Positions 331-46,064 of a DNA stretch of 48,755 bases are shown here, piece after piece. Under the pieces are notes generated by a model. The model saw nothing but the letters and a program-made list of their open reading frames with translations. It did no database searches and had not been told where the DNA came from. Within the stretch, counting starts at the first letter, position 1. Each line of letters opens with the position of its first letter. The stretch is from NCBI RefSeq assembly GCF_006345805.1, contig NW_021834399.1, positions 1 through 48,755 of the forward strand. The letters run 5' to 3'. A program made the translations under genes and the position numbers. Source of the DNA: Octopus sinensis (taxonomy: Eukaryota).

Positions 331-699
331 TCAATCATCTGTCTTGGTATTATCAATATTTCTGTTGGTATGTTCGTTTTTCTTGTCTAATCTATTTTCC
401 CTGGCCCTTCTGAAGTGATATAGTCTTCTTACGTTGTGTGTTGCTATTATCTTCGCTATGTTACGGCCATTGGAAAAAGCGAGTAGCACATAGCACGTAC
501 TGAATATTCTATGGTATGTGCTAGACTCGGGAAAGTGTTTCTCGATCGCAGTGTGAAGCAGCTTCGGAATGTTGGACATTATTTGTTTTCCGAATCCGAC
601 ATTATACCACAGAGTAATCCTGGAATCCCTATTACTTTTGACATTATTAAGTATTGTGTGGTTGTTAATGTTAGGGCCTTTCTTTTTACTGTGGTTCAC
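331..699 (-). mobile_element. Penelope-like element fragment (RT thumb / linker region), degenerate
   Basis: ORF contains 'RITLWYNVGFGKQIMSNIPKLLHTAIEKHFPESSTYHRIFSTCYVLLAFSNGRNIAKIIATHN'. This matches the PLE motif R-x-IIWFNPP...FL.LIDKHFP..H..HKIFNRN.VK.SYS...N...II..HN. Confidence 0.65.
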
Positions 700-1099
700 G
701 TGTATGCCTAGAGTGGTTTACTTCACTTCTAAGGTACAGCGTACCGTGGCTTCTGCTGTTATTTCCACCAGATCGCAATAACTATAAAACTTTGCTGTAT
801 GTAATTATAAAATATGAGGAAATAAATCTTGAAGATGAACAGGTCTCCGTATTCTACATCGTTATAATTATTGCTAATATATACTCCAGATTATATTACC
901 ATCCAGAGAAGCGAACGCGGAATAACACATCGGAGGAATTTACAGCGCGATTGACAATTAATAGTAGTCATAAACGTTAAATAGTAATCGATGCAGGTAG
1001 CCGTAACCTAGAACGTAACTGAGAGCCACCACGGTATCCGCCAGATAATATATCCTCCAAACTCACACGATATATATTTGATCATGCTGATCTACTAAC

Positions 1100-11998: not shown

Positions 11999-13350
11999 TA
12001 TGGCTGCCCCCTCGTTATCGAGTATGGCCATTGCACGAAGCTTAACTGTTATCAGTGCTGTGATCGAATGTGACTTTTTAGCCCAGCTAAAGATCTACAA
12101 CGTCTTGTACAGAATTGGCAGCTAAAGCCTTTACCGGCATAGCCGGCTGTAGTTGTAACTGGGCTTCATGTACCTTTGCGTGTCGTTTAAGTCCTCTAAC
12201 CGAATTACACTCCCTTCTACATACCTGACAGATATGATTAGTATGGTATGTAGCACCACCACCAGTGACCTGGTTGTCACTCATCTGTCTTGCTTTATGA
12301 CTATGAAGATGACTCTTGAGTCCAGCTTTGTGAGGCAGGGTCTTGCACAGACACTGCATGTCAGCATCATAGGAAGACCCTTACCATCTGGAAGTGCAAC
12401 AGCGATGCTCTTCCTGACATCCCTCCTTACTTTCCCATGCGCAACTCGAGATTTCTCAAAAGTAGCTGTCTCCTCGTGCACAATCCTTCTCCCCCTGCTA
12501 CAGTCAATAGCTATGCCCTCCCATGTGTCAGGAGAGATGCAAGCATCTCTTAAGGAAGTCTTCAGCAAGTCCTTATACCTCTTTTTTAGTTTATGTGGAT
12601 GTTGTTCTCCTTTAGCTAACTCTCTATAAAAGGTTTTTTTTTGGCATCCTTGAATCCTTCATCCTGACCAGATGACCACTCCATCTGAGCCTTTGCTTTA
12701 ACACAAGAGCTTCTATACTTTCACACCGAGAGCTTTCCAATATTTCAAGATCACTGATGCAGTCTTCCCACTTAATGCCATAGATCTGTCTGAGACACAT
12801 CTGATGGAAACGTTCCAGTTGTTTAAGGTGGTATCGATATGGGACCCACGTCTCGCAGGCATAAAAAGAGAAGGGAATACACATGCCTTGTACACCTTTA
12901 CCTTTGTCTTTCTGCATATGTCTCGCCGATTCCAGAGGCACCTTTCTAGCCTTCTAAAAGTATCACTTGCTTTCCTAATTCTGTATGGAATTTCATTATC
13001 CAGATTGCTATATCTATTAGCAGTGCTTCCCAGGTAGACAAACTGATCAACTACATCAAGTCGTTTACCATACACATAGATATTTGTTTCACTATACTGC
13101 TTACCAGGGGCAGGTTGGTACATGACAACAGTTTTTTTTAGACTGACTGTCAATCCTAAGGTAGTGCAAGCATCAGAGAATGCATTCAAAATGTGTTACT
13201 TATCAATCTCTGTGTGCGCTACTAGATCACAATCATCTGCATACAAAAGGTCTCTTATGATAGAGGTAATTATCTTTGTTTTTGCAGCAAAACGCCTGAT
13301 ATTAAATATGCTGCCAGAGGTTCGATAATGGATGTAAACTCCATATCTGC
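11998..13350 (-). mobile_element. RTE-clade LINE, 5'-truncated and frameshifted (RT C-half, C-terminal C2H2-like fingers, 3' end)
   Basis: 'IRDLLYADDCDLVAHTE', 'GLTVSLKKTVVMYQP', 'FVYLGS', 'YACETW..Y..HLKQLERFHQMCLR', 'LRWSGHLVRMKDSRMPK'. The 3' terminal stem-loop 'gccatactcgataacgagggggcagcc' is followed by a short-repeat tail. Confidence 0.92.
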
Positions 13351-13439
13351 AAAATATATGGCAAATAGGGTCGGTGCCAGAATATCCCCTTGTTTCATTA
13401 CATTTTATATTGAGATAGGCTCCGACTTGTAAGTGTAAT

Positions 13440-14165
13440 CTAAAAACTTCAGGATGGAAAGCACATGGAAGAGACTTGATTATTGGATACTGGTACAAGG
13501 AACTAACATTCTATCGACCATATCTTATCAACCTGTATCAACAAGCTCTCGATGGAAATAGTAGCATGCCAGACTGGTTAGCTCTGACAGAGACAAAGCT
13601 GATCCCCAAAAGCAGAACCACCTGTATGGTAAAAAAACAGTCGACCAATTGCATGCCAGAACGTGATGTATAAAATATACGCAGCATGATTAAACCTCTT
13701 CCTCCAAGACTATTATGAAAGTAATAACCATCATCACAGCATAACAAGCAGCTGGGGAGAAGGGAGCTGGATATGTGCCGAATAATTGTTGATAAACAAA
13801 AGTGTTATGTCAGAGGTGCAGGAGCATATGAGGAACCTAGTTTCAATGTGGCTGGACTACAAGAAAGCCTTTGACTCTATCCCCAACTCATGAATGCTAG
13901 AAGTCCTTCAACTTGCTAAAGTTCCCCTAAGCATAGTCAAAGCCAAAGTTGGCCACCGTCTTGAAGTCAAATACAAGGAGTGATTACATAATCTCTGATA
14001 GAATACAGTGTTGCAAAGGTATATTCCAAGGGGATATCCTCTTTGTGATGGTGTTTATACGTTCTGTAAACCCCTTATTTCACTGGTTCACAAGGAAACA
14101 AAAATGTCAAAATTGCACACTATTTCTCTGTGGATGACTTGAAACTGTATGCCAAGTATGTGCAT
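13440..14165 (+). mobile_element. R4/Dong-type (RLE) LINE reverse transcriptase fragment
   Basis: 'GWKAHGRDLIIGYWYKEL', 'MPDWL..TETKLIPK', 'RPIACQNVMYKI', 'EQLLINK', 'WLDYKKAFDSIP', 'KGIFQGD', 'DDLKLYAK'. Confidence 0.85.
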
Positions 14166-16276: not shown

Positions 16277-16454
16277 TATTATTATTGTTGTTAAAGCATT
16301 GCTTATATAGCCACCGTGTACAGTGTGTTAAGTTATAGGATATACCAATTTACATATTAACCGCATTCCTAGAGCTGGTATGTAAAAACTAATGATTTGT
16401 AGATAGTGGCATTTCCTTATGCAACCATAATATACTATAAAGTATTTTAAATTA

Positions 16455-17070
16455 TATTGCCACATTCTGGTAATTTCGTCTTTTAGTAGTCTGTACTTTT
16501 CGATCTTTTTTAGTTCTTTGTCACTTATGCGTGCATCTCCAGGTATTTCAATATCTATGATCTTGGTTTCCTTTTTTCTTTTATCTACCACAACAATATC
16601 TGGTCTCCGAGCCTCGATTAAGGAATCACATTAGATTGTAAAATCCCACCATATCTTATGTTCCTTGTTCTCAGTGACTCCTTCTGGTTCATGTTCGTAC
16701 CATTTCCGTACTCTGTTCAAGCCGTACTTTTCACATAACCTCCTATGAAAGAACTAAGCTACGTTATCGTGTCGCCTTTTGTAGTGCTTTTGGGCCAGCT
16801 TGCTACACTCACTCACAATATGTGAGATTGTTTCGTTTCTGCTGCCACACATTCTACAAAGGGGCGAATCGCTACTCTTATCTATTTGGAACTTGGTGTA
16901 ATTAGTTCTCAGAGCTTGTTCCTGGGCGCTGCCAATCAATGCCTCAGTGCATCCTTTCAGATCACTTATTCTTAGCCATCTCCAAATGTTGGTCTTGTCT
17001 TTTCCTTCGATTTCTCTGAGGTATTGCCCACAGAGTGATTTCATTTTCCAGTTGTTCACTCTTTCTTCTT
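16455..17070 (-). mobile_element. R4/Dong-type LINE 3' part: CCHC knuckle and restriction-like endonuclease
   Basis: 'AQEQALRTN', 'CRMCGSRNETISHIVSEC', 'YKRRHDNVA', 'WYEHEPEGV', 'ARRPDIVVVDK..TKIIDIEIPGD', 'KIEKY'. Confidence 0.92.
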
Positions 17071-17470
17071 CATGTGCAGATACTTGGAAAAAAGTGGGCT
17101 GCTACCCATTGAACAGAAAGGGTGCCGAAAAAGGAGCCGGGGAACGAAGGATCAGCTCTTTATTAATAAAATAATTATCAGGCACTGCAAAAGAAGACAT
17201 ACAAACCTGAGCATGGCATGGATTGACTATCGCAAAGCATAGGATATGATACCACATTCCTGGATAACAAGATCAATGAAAATGAATGGAATAGCAGAAA
17301 ATATGAGAAGCCTTATACGGAATACCATGAAATACTGAAGAACGGAATTGACAGCAGGGAATCAAGTATTAGGGGAGGTGAAAATCAAGAGAGGAATCTT
17401 CCAGGGAGACAGTATGTCCCCACTGATATTCGTGCTGGGAATGATCCCCTTGAGTGAAATACTACATAAA
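17071..17470 (+). mobile_element. R4/Dong-type LINE RT segment, inverted relative to 16455-17070
   Basis: '[20 protein letters not shown]', '[19 protein letters not shown]', 'IKRGIFQGDSMSPLIF'. Confidence 0.88.
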
Positions 17471-17858
17471 ATATCAAGAAAAAAATGCTTTCTAATCGAT
17501 GTATCAATACCAACAGATGACAATGTTTCTCTAAAAGAAACGGAGAAACTTTCAAAATACAAAGATCTAGAAATAGAGGTAACTCGAATGTGGAGCCTAA
17601 AAACAGAAACAATTCCTATCATAGTAGGCGCATTAAGTATGATAAAAAAATATTCAGACAAATACATAACAAAAACATCAGGACTAACAAGTATATATAA
17701 CATACAGAAAGTAGCACTACTAGGCACCGCACACATCCTACGTAAAATACTTTCAAAACAGTGAAAATAAGAGCATCACAACAAACTACAATACATACCC
17801 AAGGCACACAGAGCTGCGCTCGGTAGTGCAGTGAAAGCACATGATAGAAATAACACTA

Positions 17859-31837: not shown

Positions 31838-32120
31838 AATTAATATGTTTTGTTAGATAAAATAAATCGAAGCTGAAGTTTCTCCTTCTTTTTACAAACA
31901 TCATAATGATCTTGAAGGCACTTGACTGCCCGTTCTGCACTCTGATTTGTTCTGGGAATTTCCAATTTTTATGGTTCTCGACTTCAAAAGTTTTTTACAG
32001 AGTTCAATGCTTTTTTATGAGCTTGCAGGCTACCAAATAACTTCTGATAATCATGTGCATCGAACATTTGGTCAGTGAACGAAATATCTGTTTAGCTGTA
32101 AGAGATGAATCGAAAAACAT
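31838..32120 (-). mobile_element. Probable DNA transposase C-terminus (hAT-related), degenerate
   Basis: Minus frame reads 'DYQKLFGSLQAHKKALNSVKNF*SREP*KLEIPRTNQSAERAVKCLQDHY...LRFILSNKTY*'. The N-x-x-AERAVK motif resembles the catalytic-Glu helix of hAT-related transposases. MITE-like sequence lies to its left (31250-31600). Confidence 0.45.
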
Positions 32121-32675
32121 TAAGCAAAACTCTTCGAGCTTTCCGTCATCTCCAGTCCGACCCGTCCACTTCACACCTCTTCCCTAACCGACCCCTCCCC
32201 TCTTTCAAACGAGCCCACAACCTTCGAGACCTTTTGGTCCATAGCTCCTTCCCTGACCCTACCTCCCAACCCGGCTCGTTCCCCTGCTCCCGCCCACGTT
32301 GCCGCACTTGCCCTTACCTCTCCAACACCACCCGTCTCACTAGCACCCACCATCGACCCTATCCCATCATCCACTCCTTCACCTGCACCTCCAGCAATAT
32401 TATCTATTGCATCTCTTGCTCTCTCTGCAATTCCTTGTACATCGGACAAACGGGACGCCGCTTGGCTGACCGGTTCGCGGAACACCTTCGTGACATCCAC
32501 CTTGCGAACGACACACCGGTCTCACGCCATTTCCGCTCCACCGGTCACTCCTTGCAACACCTATCTGTGTTCGGTTGTCCTTACACAGAGGCCATCCGGA
32601 TTCCCGTTTGCGCCGTGAACAGGAATTAATCTTCTCTCTTCGCTCTTATACGCCATTTGGTCTCAACTCTCCCCC
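32105..32675 (+). pseudogene. PLE GIY-YIG endonuclease with Cys-rich linker (Neptune-type), one frameshift near 32575
   Basis: 'PLPSFKRAHNLRDLLV', 'PCSRPRCRTC', 'FTCTSSNIIYCISCSLCNSLYIGQTGRRLADRFAEH', 'PVSRHF...H'. It continues in another frame as 'RLRREQELIFSLRSYTPFGLN'. Confidence 0.92.
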
Positions 32676-41714: not shown

Positions 41715-42063
41715 TTCTTTTACTTGTTTCAGTCATTAGACTGCGATCATGCAGGATCACAGCCTTCAAAATTTTTAGTCAAACGAATCGACCCCAACAT
41801 TTTCTGGTACTTAATCTATCGTTATTTTTTGAGCCGAACCACTAAGTTATGGAGACGTAAACTCACCAACACTGGTTGCAAAATGGTGGAACAGGGGACA
41901 AACACAGACAAAAAAACACACAAACACACATGTGCATATACGCGACAAGCTTCTTCCAGTTTCCGTCTTCCAAATCTACTCCTAAGGGTTTGGTGGCCCG
42001 AGGCTATAGTAGAAGGCATTTGCCCAACGTACTAACCAGTGGGACTGAACCTGGAATCCTGTG
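41715..42063 (-). mobile_element. SINE family B, head-truncated
   Basis: 'tttacttgtttcagtcattagactgcg', 'gccgaaccactaagtta', 'cccgaggctatagtagaag', 'cagtgggactgaacc'. Confidence 0.85.
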
Positions 42064-42242
42064 ATAGCAAACGTCTAAACAAAAACAACGACGACCACCA
42101 TCACTACCACTTCCACTACTACTACTACTACTACTACTACTAACTACTACACATTATATACATACATATATATTTACGTAGATGCGTACATATATACATA
42201 CATGTGTATGTATGTATGTATGTATGTATGTATGCATACATA

Positions 42243-43510
42243 ATGGTTTGGCAAGAAAGTAATTTCCTTTTTCGCAAATAAAGTTGCGATTCTTTTGAAT
42301 GACTTTTGTCAATGTCATGATTTCTTTCCTTTTGACATTTGATAGCCGTTACTTTTAACTTATTTTAGAAGCAAATTACGTGTAATTTTGTTTACAGTTG
42401 TTCGTTCAGTGTTAATTTTAACATGTAATACAAAAACGAACATTTTCGCCATATTTTGCTGTTTTATTTCCGTTAAAGGCAATAAAGTTGCTAAGCTCAA
42501 AAGGAGATATGTTAAGTTTATGATGTTGACTGCTTAACAGAGCGCACATGTCAGAAATGGTTTTAAAAATTCCGTTCTTCAGATTTTTTACTCAAAGACG
42601 ATCAACGTTCTGGTCGACCTACTGAAGTTGATGATGACCGAATAAAAATCCTAAATGAATCTGATTGTCATAAAACTGTGCAAGAGATTGCAGAGAGGTT
42701 AAATGTATCACACACAACAACTGAAAATCATTTAAAATGTCTCGGACTCATTAAAAAGCTTGATATTTAAGTTCCACATAAATTGAAAGAGATTACACTT
42801 AATAAAACGAATCAATATTTGCGATATGCATGTCAAACGCAATGAAATCGACCTAGTTTTGAAACGAACAATGGATTGTTTACAATAACATCAATCGCAA
42901 ATGATCATAGTCCAAGCGTATTGAACCAGCACAAATCATATCGAAAGCAGAATTGCATAAAAAAGGTCATGCTGTCGATTTGGTGGGATTACAAACGTGT
43001 TCTGTATTTAGTAACCGTCCTTGTCCGAGCTGCTTCCAAGAAACTAAACGATCAATTCAGATGTTTGCTGTCAACAACTAATGAAACTGGAGGAAACAAT
43101 CAAAGGCAAACGGCCAGAATTGGCAAATCGTAAAGGAATCGCTAAACAACACACGTCTTTGCTAACTTGTGAAAAATTATTGGAGCTTGGTTGAGAAGTA
43201 ATGTCACATCCACCATATAGCCCCACCATTGCACCATCAGATTATCATTTATTTCGAAGTTTGCAAAATTCTTTGAATGGTAAAACTTTCAATAATGATG
43301 ATGACCTGAAATTGCACTTGCATCAATCTTTGGCTAATAAGGATCAGAAGTTCTATGATCCCGGATTCATGAAGTTGCCAGAAAGGTGGTAAAAGATCAT
43401 CGAACAAAATGGAAAATATATAATTGATTAAAGTTCATTTTTTGTATGAAAAAAAAAAACAACTTTTATTCACACTAAAAAAGAACGAAATTACTTTCTT
43501 GCCGAGTCAA
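42243..43510 (+). mobile_element. Full-length mariner transposon (about 1.27 kb, cecropia/Hsmar1-like), inactive
   Basis: TIR core ggcaagaaagtaatttc at both ends in inverted orientation, with TA on each side and a transposase remnant inside. Confidence 0.93.
42423..43431 (+). pseudogene. Mariner transposase pseudogene
   Basis: 'EHFRHILLFYF', 'LTERTCQKWF*KFRS', 'DDQRSGRPTEVDDD', '*VPHKL' (WVPHEL), 'KKVMLSIWWD', 'HPPYSPTIAPSDYHLFRSLQNSLNGK', 'KLPERW*KIIEQNGKYI'. Confidence 0.93.
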
Positions 43511-43541
<31 letters not shown>

Positions 43542-43565
43542 ATATATAAATATATATATATATAA

Positions 43566-43597
<32 letters not shown>

Positions 43598-43752
43598 TGT
43601 GTGTGTGTGTGTGTGTGCGTGTGCGTGCGTGTGTGTATATATATAATTTAAATAATGAGGGAGATAAATTGAATATTAATTTAATTAATATCAAGTTAAA
43701 ACCAGTAGCCTAGCATATAAAAATCTGAAAAATCAGAGAAAATTCCAATACA

Positions 43753-44344
43753 TGTGTATATTTAGGGCTAAAAACCACTATGTGGACAGCCATATGTTAG
43801 AAGTAGATCACATACGATTAAACTACAAAGAAAGAATGTTCTCCAGAGAAAATCCAGCGGACACCAGAACATAGGCGGGCAAGACAGATGAAAATGACAT
43901 AAAAATCAAGAATTAATCGTATACCGGTTTCGTCTATCACCGAATAAATTACTTACGTAATCCTTCGTCCGTAGATTCATCAGTCCTCCAGAACTCAGAA
44001 CTCAGACATTTGAAATTAAGCCCAATATAATAAGTAGAACTAAGCATGTGTCTGGTTTTATACAGAAAACTGGTGGTTAGTTTTACAAATTATATTGCTT
44101 TTGGAAAGATCGTACTGATGAATCTACGGACGAAGGATTGCGTAAGTAGTTTATTCGGTGATAGACGAAACCGGTATACGATTAATTCTTGATTTTTATA
44201 TAATTTTCACCTGTCTTGCCCGCCTATGTTCTGGTGTCCGCTGGATTTTCTCTGGAGAACATTCTTTCTTTGCAGTTTAATCGTATGTGATCTACTTCTA
44301 GCATATGGCTGTTCACATAATGGTTTTTAGCCTAAATATACACA
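43753..44344. mobile_element. Fold-back element: about 231-bp inverted arms (about 96% identical), 129-bp spacer, containing a hammerhead ribozyme
   Basis: 43753-43984 versus the reverse complement of 44114-44344 shows about 9 substitutions and 1 indel by manual alignment. TA/TG microsatellites lie nearby on both sides. Confidence 0.93.
44108..44183 (+). ncRNA. Type I hammerhead ribozyme with extended stem II
   Basis: gatcgta-CTGATGA-atcta-cggacgaa-gg-attgc-gtaa-gtagt-ttattcg-gtga-tagac-GAAAC-CG-GT-A|tacgatt. Stem I is 7 bp, stem III is the palindrome ACCGGT and the triplet is GUA. The first stem II pair is an A-C mismatch. Confidence 0.8.
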
Positions 44345-44964
44345 CACACATATATAAATATAATATATATATAATATATATGTATATATATATATATATA
44401 TAATATTATATATATATATATATATATATGTATATGTGTGTGTATGCATATATGTGCTTCGCACATTCATTCAGACAGCAGTACGGTATGCTATAATATT
44501 AATCTAAGTTGCCGACAAGGCTTAGCTAAATACTTGGCTAAAGCAGGCTTCTTCTAAATCAAGATGTAATCGCAAGACCTGTATGGCTTTAGCTGAAAAG
44601 TATAATTGAACTATCAATTACGTGCTGATTGCCCTTTTCTCTTGTAAGTCTAACTTAATGTGCAAGTAGGATACACACACTCTCTCTGTCTCTCTCTCTC
44701 TCTCTCTCTCACTCACACACGCACTTATATGTAATATATACAGCGTGCTGTGTGTGTGTGTGCTTGTGTTGAGTTTAATCTGAAAATTCAAGGATAGGAA
44801 CTGCACAGAAGCCATTAGCTAGCAGACATGCAACAAATTGGTAGTACCTCACCTACAATATCAAAAAAGAGGTTGTGATCAGAGAAATTTAATGAAGGGA
44901 AGGAGCATGCAAACAGAAACAGTTGGATTGAGACGCTAACGCTAATGGATAGCTTAAGTAAAAG

Positions 44965-45001
44965 GAAGAAAAAGAGAGAAAGAAAGAAAGAAAGAAAGAA
45001 A

Positions 45002-45050
<49 letters not shown>

Positions 45051-45125
45051 AAAGAGAAATGAATAAATAAATGAATAAAGAAAGAAAGAAAGACCGAAAG
45101 AAAGAAAGAGAGAAAGAGAGATAGA
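44965..45125. repeat. (GAAA)n purine tract
   Basis: Direct reading. Confidence 0.95.
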
Positions 45126-46064
45126 GATGTGAGCAAAAGAAGCTATTGTGGATGATGTGGGCACGTGTTCTTGAAAATGGAACTTTCCAGGTTGATTCAT
45201 ACAAACAATGGCGAAAGTTGTGTACTTCGATCTTGTAGTCAGTAATAAATAGTGATACTAGTGTGACACTGATGATGGTCATCAGTGCTGAGGCTACTCA
45301 TCCACGGATGATGCTTTTTTGCAGCAAGCTGGTCATTCCTTGAAGATTACGGCCGCATATTGAAGTCTTGAATGTTCTTGTAAAATGTTGCAAAAATTCA
45401 TTATTGCAATAGAATCAGCGTGATGAGGATCATCCTCAGAAACATGCTACAGAGTTTTACAAGGACAACGAAGGTACTGTATTACCATTGTTTTCAACGT
45501 TATGTATCAGTCAACCGCATCTATAAAATTTCATAAATTTTACATCTACTTACAGAAAACTCAAGGGCTGAACATACCAGCATATAATGCTTCAAATATT
45601 GTCACGAAGAAAACAATACAACTCATCGGTCTGGGGTCACATTTGGCCAAACAAAGAAATAATTCTCTGATAGCGTTTGATTCTACTGAACTGCGGTATA
45701 AATGTTAAAAAGGCCGTAATTTGTGTTTGACTAAAAGCAATATCGTATCACACCCGGTCCGCACCAATAATGAGCAGAAAGACATTTCATTATCTGTTCA
45801 CACTGCAACAGACATATTATATATGAAGTTACAGATTACCAGAATCATCACTCATCAGGTGACATGCTACCATTATGTCGTTTATGTTGACAACTATAAG
45901 AGAATATGAAGACCGTGGTGTCCAAATTTCTCGATACTAGTTTAAAACCATATGGGAATAGCAACAGGTACTCTGTGTATGTGCATGCGTGCGGGTTTGT
46001 GTGTATATTTTTGTGTGTGAGCATGTCTATGCATGTACGTATGTATGTCATTGTTCAGTTTATT

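Follow-up and report, generated by a model that had tools for sequence, protein, structure and literature searches.

A tail-out insertion in Octopus sinensis belongs to a dispersed 544-nt repeat, likely a PLE-copied non-LTR retrozyme with a predicted long-stem-II hammerhead

Described retrozymes span a range from dimers to large multimers. Those of animals, the non-LTR retrozymes, are reported as ORF-less tandem units with a type I hammerhead that are expressed as circles, and enzymes of Penelope-like elements (PLEs) have been proposed to move them (PMC7229834); a vertebrate survey has likewise linked retrozymes to the pseudo-LTRs of PLEs (bioRxiv 10.64898/2026.07.22.740005). The hammerheads of PLEs themselves are described as having a small palindromic helix III, a helix II of 6-8 bp, a conserved G10.1-C11.1 pair and U3-A8 variants (PMC4209133). 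PLE insertions are characterized by inverted 5'-truncated copies and a bias towards (TA)n or other microsatellite targets, and the same source mentions Naiad half-cores 35-50 nt apart (PMC8557442). For purified Poseidon, two internal start sites of reverse transcription were reported, with uncut RNA as the main substrate (PMC11167929). In the portions of the literature available, our search found no paper on octopus retrozymes or on type I hammerheads with a long stem II; Lunse et al. 2017, on PLE hammerhead dimers (as cited in PMC6765202), may hold longer stem II variants.

The locus that we compared with these systems lies at 43646..44344 of a 48,755-nt stretch of O. sinensis DNA (contig NW_021834399.1), called the window below. 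We consider it highly probable that the locus is a tail-out copy of a dispersed, ORF-less, permuted 544-nt repeat, that this repeat is a non-LTR retrozyme copied in trans by the reverse transcriptase/endonuclease (RT/EN) of a PLE, probably of Neptune type, and that its long-stem-II type I hammerhead is one that would cut after GUA as a dimer. The ACCGGU/GUA end of the hammerhead, shared with two unrelated families and an intact Neptune-like PLE, together with the architecture of the family, points to a non-autonomous PLE passenger of the non-LTR retrozyme type.

The insertion (L001/L124 when mapped on the 544-nt unit, in which c1 is the first base 3' of the predicted cut) is 699 bp long and strandless as a whole, and both of its 3' ends face outward into microsatellites. 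The inverted arm (43646..43984, minus strand) covers c482-544 followed by c1-278 and ends at the distal of two 3' hot spots, and the forward arm (43997..44344, plus strand) covers c363-544 followed by c1-171 and ends at the proximal one, its exact end being blurred by the microsatellite. Between them lies a 12-nt inversion junction (43985..43996) with 3 nt of filler and a duplication of 7 nt; the copy lacks c279-362, a stretch of 84 nt. The flanking microsatellites, with TAAA, TA and TG runs on the left (43510..43645) and CA and TA runs on the right (44345..44452), are the probable target, and no contig bridged an empty-site allele. An earlier, sequence-only reading had bounded the element at 43753..44344; the insertion runs 107 bp further left, and the added stretch (43646..43752, minus strand), which lies between the two 3' hot spots, is family sequence that has no partner in the right arm. 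The ORF-less inverted arms of about 96% identity given in that reading were recovered, as 43766-43984 and 44114-44332 align over 219 nt ungapped with 9 mismatches (96%), and 43753-43984 and 44114-44344 over 232 nt with one gap (95.7%). The inverted arm holds a truncated hammerhead (43915..43984, minus strand) with the core, stem II, stem III and the 3' strand of stem I; as had been described, it ends one base outside CTGATGA and therefore lacks the 5' strand of stem I. The locus has one complete ribozyme and one truncated inverted ribozyme, and the complete tandem pair that Li et al. use as their criterion for 'active' is absent. The predicted fold of the whole insertion is a duplex of -432 kcal/mol with the hammerhead core buried. 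With a single complete ribozyme, 84 nt of its unit missing and a 219-bp duplex that would bury the core, the window copy is probably inactive, an ordinary decayed insertion and a dead end.

A DNA search of the 2.72 Gb genome from which the window comes gave about 1,650 first-look candidates, and the best 40 of these yielded 52 matches. Full-length matches among the best 40 were 87-94% identical to the window, the window itself excepted, and no pair of distinct long copies was more than 96.1% identical. The word 'young' in the sequence-only reading was thus an overstatement: with no long pair above 96.1% and a terminal branch of about 0.04 for the right arm of the window copy, the family looks quiet rather than young, as judged from sequence divergence. 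Our family sample comprised 94 loci, representing 72 distinct places, in which the copies are permuted windows of one 544-nt unit (GC 32%) with seamless head-to-tail joins; the longest stop-free frame in the doubled unit is 65 aa. Same-strand runs longer than one unit were found at 21 of the 72 places, and the ribozyme site is repeated one unit apart in L018, L023, L007 and L097, the largest arrays seen for this family being shorter than two full units. At 27 places both orientations occur, all of them tail-out and none head-out.

The 3' ends of the copies are concentrated at two hot spots. Among 29 arms collected with a ribozyme-adjacent pattern (L094-L123, one duplicate removed), 28 end at c165-182 or c275-295, and over all segments 90 of 102 ends fall at these two sites, two of the queries being biased to those ends. 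The two fixed sites adjoin (TA)n, and 67 of the 90 hot-spot ends adjoin microsatellite-like flank. The 5' ends are scattered, with only 2 of 99 within c540-c8. Variable 5' ends combined with fixed 3' ends are a signature of retrotransposition. The marks of PLE-type insertion are thus present, namely variable 5' ends, an inverted 5' copy, two alternative 3' ends and a microsatellite target, as are those of a non-LTR retrozyme, namely the absence of coding capacity and a head-to-tail unit with one type I hammerhead each; the mark of an autonomous PLE, an ORF for RT and GIY-YIG, is absent from the unit. The proposal of a non-autonomous, ORF-less, PLE-style insertion is supported. Of 80 copies containing c1-21, collected with a pattern that excludes C at one upstream position and read by eye, 77 run on through the cut site into the ribozyme. 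Since the copies cross this site, either a circle or an uncut multimer served as template, and the data are compatible with both.

These observations are consistent with the following route. Tandem-source RNA is predicted to be cut by two hammerheads that pair through the ACCGGU palindrome, and the cut RNA might then be ligated into a circle. A PLE protein would nick a (TA)n tract, and reverse transcription would start inside the RNA at either of two sites, about 170-176 or 278-283 nt past the cut, and continue through the ribozyme. A second cDNA would account for the inverted arm, its synthesis being primed at the other site by the opposite strand of the target; in the window, the 3' end of the right arm lies at site 1 and that of the left arm at site 2. 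This resembles the green anole Poseidon PAc as described in PMC11167929, with its two internal RT starts 3' of the ribozyme, AT-rich targets and copying of uncut RNA. PAc differs in being autonomous and in that its two sites bound a tail of 30-40 nt (PMC11167929); the spacing is about 105 nt in the 544-nt family, and 65 nt and about 85 nt in two further families, B and C, described below. Genomic copies of an ORF-less element would thus record the mode of copying that an autonomous PLE has shown in vitro, with two start sites, read-through and tail-out products, a record that lends fairly direct support to PLEs as movers of retrozymes.

Compared with the metazoan non-LTR retrozymes of coral, mussel and axolotl as presented in PMC7229834, and with those of the vertebrate survey (bioRxiv 10.64898/2026.07.22.740005), the family has in common an ORF-less unit with one type I hammerhead each, low GC, head-to-tail copies, co-occurrence with PLEs and a unit length within 51-972 bp, as well as the weak palindromic stem III of the axolotl HHR_Amex1. 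It differs from them in that its copies are mostly dispersed, shorter than two units, often tail-out and bounded by two fixed (TA)n ends, and in its stem II of 45 nt as opposed to the canonical 4 bp and loop. Expression, cleavage and circles have been shown for the described retrozymes (PMC7229834), whereas the 544-nt family is known here from genomic sequence and its cleavage is a prediction.

The complete type I hammerhead of the window copy occupies 44103..44189 on the plus strand, where its parts lie as the sequence-only reading had placed them: the 5' strand of stem I at 44108-44114, CUGAUGA at 44115-44121, stem II at 44122-44166, GAA at 44167-44169, the palindromic ACCGGU of stem III at 44170-44175, H17 of the GUA site at A44176, after which the cut is predicted, and the 3' strand of stem I at 44177-44183. 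All core elements (CUGANGA, GAA, A15.1-U16.1 and H17) follow in type I order at 44115-44176. The proposed 7-bp pairing of stem I was found, but the stem is longer than that, as 4 bp (44103-44106 with 44186-44189) extend it past an internal loop. The 45-nt stem II (44122..44166, plus strand) consists of an A.C mismatch, 4 bp, an internal loop, two further helices and a GUAA tetraloop; in isolation it is predicted to fold as the single hairpin that had been suggested, at -10.5 kcal/mol with the A.C at its base unpaired. The closing pair G10.1-C11.1 is absent, A.C standing in its place in both arms. The arrangement shares with the PLE pseudo-LTR hammerheads in PMC4209133 the type I order, palindromic positions 15.2-16.2, predicted dimers and a helix II above canonical length, and that work already contains opposite-strand hammerhead pairs 100-700 bp apart, as in the window. 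Helix II is 6-8 bp there and about 17 bp in three segments here, and the window copy further differs from that description (PMC4209133) in having no extra nucleotide between 9 and 10.1, no G10.1-C11.1 pair and no attached ORF.

The Rfam search that had been suggested as a check (42000-46000, E up to 10) returned 36 matches and no hammerhead; the top match, to a plant miRNA model, was rejected as a reflection of the fold-back. The long stem II probably defeats the Rfam models. The predicted stability of the isolated 126-nt hammerhead region was not significant (z -1.5), and competing predicted folds are about 4 kcal/mol more stable than the hammerhead fold. Among them is a local hairpin with a UACG loop, which forms at the start of stem II (44122-44135), is followed by GAAG and rivals the active fold in the predictions. 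A GACGAA direct repeat flanks the remainder of the long arm, a hint of a recent insertion of that arm into an ancestor with a short stem II; we rejected this idea, as the corresponding short-stem pattern, an exact pattern in the G10.1/T7 form only, had no matches. A second hammerhead nested in the first, with GAAG and the GUAA hairpin forming its stem III, was likewise rejected, since it would require G15.1 and a broken stem I.

A family-specific hammerhead pattern gave 66 genome matches against 1 in the control. For the core and its covariation we aligned 50 copies, picked mostly by DNA similarity, and the 12 fixed core positions are retained in 48-50 of these 50. N7 is T in 30, C in 19 and G in 1, H17 is A in 40, C in 8 and T in 2, and position 10.1 is G in 27 and A in 23; these three are the only core columns that split by subfamily. 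The named structure leaves 93% of cells paired, compared with 31-42% in slid controls, cell counts that are inflated by shared ancestry and represent few independent events. Of 49 distinct rows, 37 have UA and 7 have CG at pair II.2, a change that may represent one or few events, and pair 2.2 of stem I is UA in 34 and UG in 13. Several stem I and distal stem II pairs switch between Watson-Crick and G-U, the distal stem II varying mostly on one side only (G-U), and the measures shuffled at the level of pairs did not reach significance (131/500 and 77/500). The conservation of core and stems among genomic copies, on which the sequence-only reading had made its case depend, is therefore seen, with few independent events behind the covariation.

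Stem III is 3 nt longer in 19 of the 66 pattern matches, and in the aligned copies this accompanies a GUC triplet, so that one subfamily with a 3-bp stem III and a GUC site coexists with the palindromic, dimer-only form. In constrained fold predictions the long-stem-III form makes a complete monomeric hammerhead, and in the palindromic form stem III is predicted to pair between two molecules. The subfamily tree is unrooted and gives the stem III change no direction; rooting with an older relative in repeat family D brought no resolution (34-38 of about 65 columns). Naturally occurring variants, which differ in the length of stem III, in G versus A at 10.1 and in U versus C at 7, make the family suitable for studying dimer dependence and the closing pair.

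The A-C first pair of stem II, which the sequence-only reading had noticed in both arms, is also a subfamily trait (A10.1 in 18 of the 66 pattern matches) and has not stopped amplification. That copies lacking the conserved G-C have spread, and that 5' ends do not cluster at the cut site, would also be expected if the element were the same and the hammerhead of this subfamily no longer cut usefully, its fold giving the PLE protein a handle on the RNA and its copies arising from uncut tandem transcripts and not from circles. In keeping with this, ribozyme mutants of lizard Poseidon insert normally in vitro (PMC11167929), and cleavage was reported for only 1 of 9 frog retrozyme dimers (bioRxiv 10.64898/2026.07.22.740005). 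On the other hand, an axolotl retrozyme showed 22% cleavage despite having a U.U mismatch at the base of helix II (PMC7229834). Moreover, the A10.1 rows do not form one clade (p-AU 0.0004; 20 versus 20 rows, one lone A row dropped), which implies a return to G or recombination, and the other core changes of the subfamilies fall on N7, a free position, and on H17, a pattern indicative of selection for catalysis among the source elements. We therefore regard the loss of useful cutting as a serious but clearly less probable alternative to a retrozyme whose hammerhead cuts as a dimer.

With respect to a source of enzymes for such a retrozyme, the genome contains an abundant PLE with intact 784-aa frames that have an RVT_1 match and a sub-threshold GIY-YIG match. 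We take it to be Neptune-like on account of the Cys motif in its linker and of features known for that clade, and not from a tree. At L184:1643-3994, L185 and L186 it has an upstream ORF and tandem and inverted copies, and its copies are 98-100% alike and thus young. Its hammerhead has U3-A8, a 4-bp stem II and an ACCGGU/GUA end, followed by a tail of about 35 nt. Its stem III and cut triplet, GAAACCGGUA, are those of the 544-nt unit, which it also resembles in having two 3' ends at (TA)n and, upstream, a copy in inverted orientation; unlike the unit, it encodes RT and GIY-YIG, has the short stem II and U3-A8 core, and is younger. In a comparison with this one PLE family, the unit showed no sequence homology outside GAAACCGGTA. 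The Neptune-like PLE is the natural candidate for the helper. The window itself contains a fragment of another PLE at 32102-32626 (plus strand; GIY-YIG match at E 0.00085, below the Pfam cut-off), and stop-free frames resembling decayed retroelement pieces at 331-717 (minus strand), 12281-13510 (minus strand) and 16328-17764, which we assume to be PLE-like, RTE-like and another LINE-like, respectively.

Truncated 3' ends of an autonomous PLE outside our sample could produce this pattern of inversions, of two 3' ends and of targets in microsatellites, as PLE ends do in PMC8557442 and in the Neptune-like PLE here, and the locus would then be an ordinary pseudo-LTR remnant. The flanks covered only about 1.5 kb and the best 40 of about 1,650 candidates, which leaves some room for this view, but upstream of the ribozyme the copies run into the same 544-nt unit and not into coding sequence, and the runs longer than one unit at 21 places also speak against it. 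A tblastn search found a Neptune-like RT/EN within about 1.5 kb at 0 of 90 family loci, so that the situation named earlier as refuting a separate element, copies always joined to a PLE ORF, did not occur. At one of the 72 places, L004 (G000:C4), a family copy is directly preceded by a decayed RT-like remnant of like orientation. The remnant is presumably Naiad-like, judging by a motif; queries from two RT-like remnants matched the L004/L111 place alone, and the adjacency is probably due to chance. On balance, a pseudo-LTR remnant seems to us improbable. A fold-back or MITE-like DNA transposon, with the 219-bp arms of 96% identity as terminal inverted repeats and no ORF, is hardly conceivable, as the architecture of the family rules it out: an inverted part is lacking at 45 of 72 places, the point of inversion differs freely among copies, 107 bp of the left arm have no counterpart in the right arm, and fixed terminal inverted repeats common to all copies do not occur. 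The earlier description as a fold-back element is accordingly valid for the inverted arms at the window, but it applies to the architecture of single insertions only.

The long stem II is not confined to the window family and is common in this genome, where three other families have a stem II of 31-62 nt. In genome scans for CTGATGA...GAAACCGGTA, 240 and 102 matches were obtained, the controls yielding 3 and 6, and among the matches listed most belong to two unrelated ORF-less families, B and C, which are permuted, tail-out and two-ended like the 544-nt family and have no homology to its unit beyond the ribozyme. Family B (L031-L058, L080, L084) has a unit of about 426 nt, a 43-nt stem II, the ACCGGU/GUA end, 3' ends at c199 and c264, and clear double changes (35 cells) in stem I and in both the base and the distal part of stem II. 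Family C (most of L061-L090) has a unit of about 438 nt, a 31-nt stem II, the same stem III, 3' ends at about c203 and c290, and weak covariation (88/500 for cells paired). A model derived from the 544-nt family found the B ribozymes at E of about 1e-5 and those of C only at 0.19, both being rough E-values. A family B trimer with units 98% identical (L092:1686-3063) may be a source locus. We also observed a family E with a 62-nt stem II, the palindrome ACGAUCGU and U at 10.1 (L212-L231 at about 1570-1660, and L093:2074-2150), whose copies look 5'-truncated and linear and which had no ORF in one translated flank, and another long-stem-II hammerhead (about 52 nt) with the palindrome ACAUAUGU and a GUC site at L163:3028-3131. 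If the preferred reading is correct, animal retrozymes extend to an octopus genome in a form that Rfam misses.

The hammerheads of three unrelated ORF-less families and of the intact Neptune-like PLE all end in ACCGGU/GUA, and within the 544-nt family the dimer-only palindrome occurs beside a 3-bp stem III that is sufficient by itself and has a GUC site. A speculative, and in our opinion rather doubtful, reading of this is that ACCGGU acts as a shared docking code, in which parasite and helper would form mixed hammerhead dimers that tether the parasite to the helper RT/endonuclease or cut the helper, and that the long stem II, through the UACG hairpin of its 5' strand, would be a switch that spares the circle from cutting itself.

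Four sequencing runs that we guessed to be RNA gave contigs only. Long pieces over the ribozyme had a depth of 3-5 and carry no end, strand or circle information, and one 377-nt contig of depth 3 crosses the predicted cut site. Joints that appeared to go back 543 nt were rejected as evidence for circles, as they are an artefact of the two-unit reference. No run containing the stretch was recorded as RNA, and the data speak neither for nor against expression. The very high depth at c204-284 in these runs probably comes from a different abundant repeat that shares this stretch.

A search for a 3'-end motif common to the families and the Neptune-like PLE gave only matches of 4-7 nt for the 544-nt family, B and C. 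The 3' end of the older relative in repeat D shares 13 nt with the end of the Neptune tail, a match noted post hoc. Repeat D (L187-L211 at about 1200-1700, and L025:1-774) is abundant, has a fixed 5' start and is, we assume from its features, Helitron-like. It contains 80 nt that resemble c204-284 at about 83%, as well as a short segment that resembles c115-141 in inverted orientation, and possibly carries an old tail-out insertion of the 544-nt family that was amplified afterwards.
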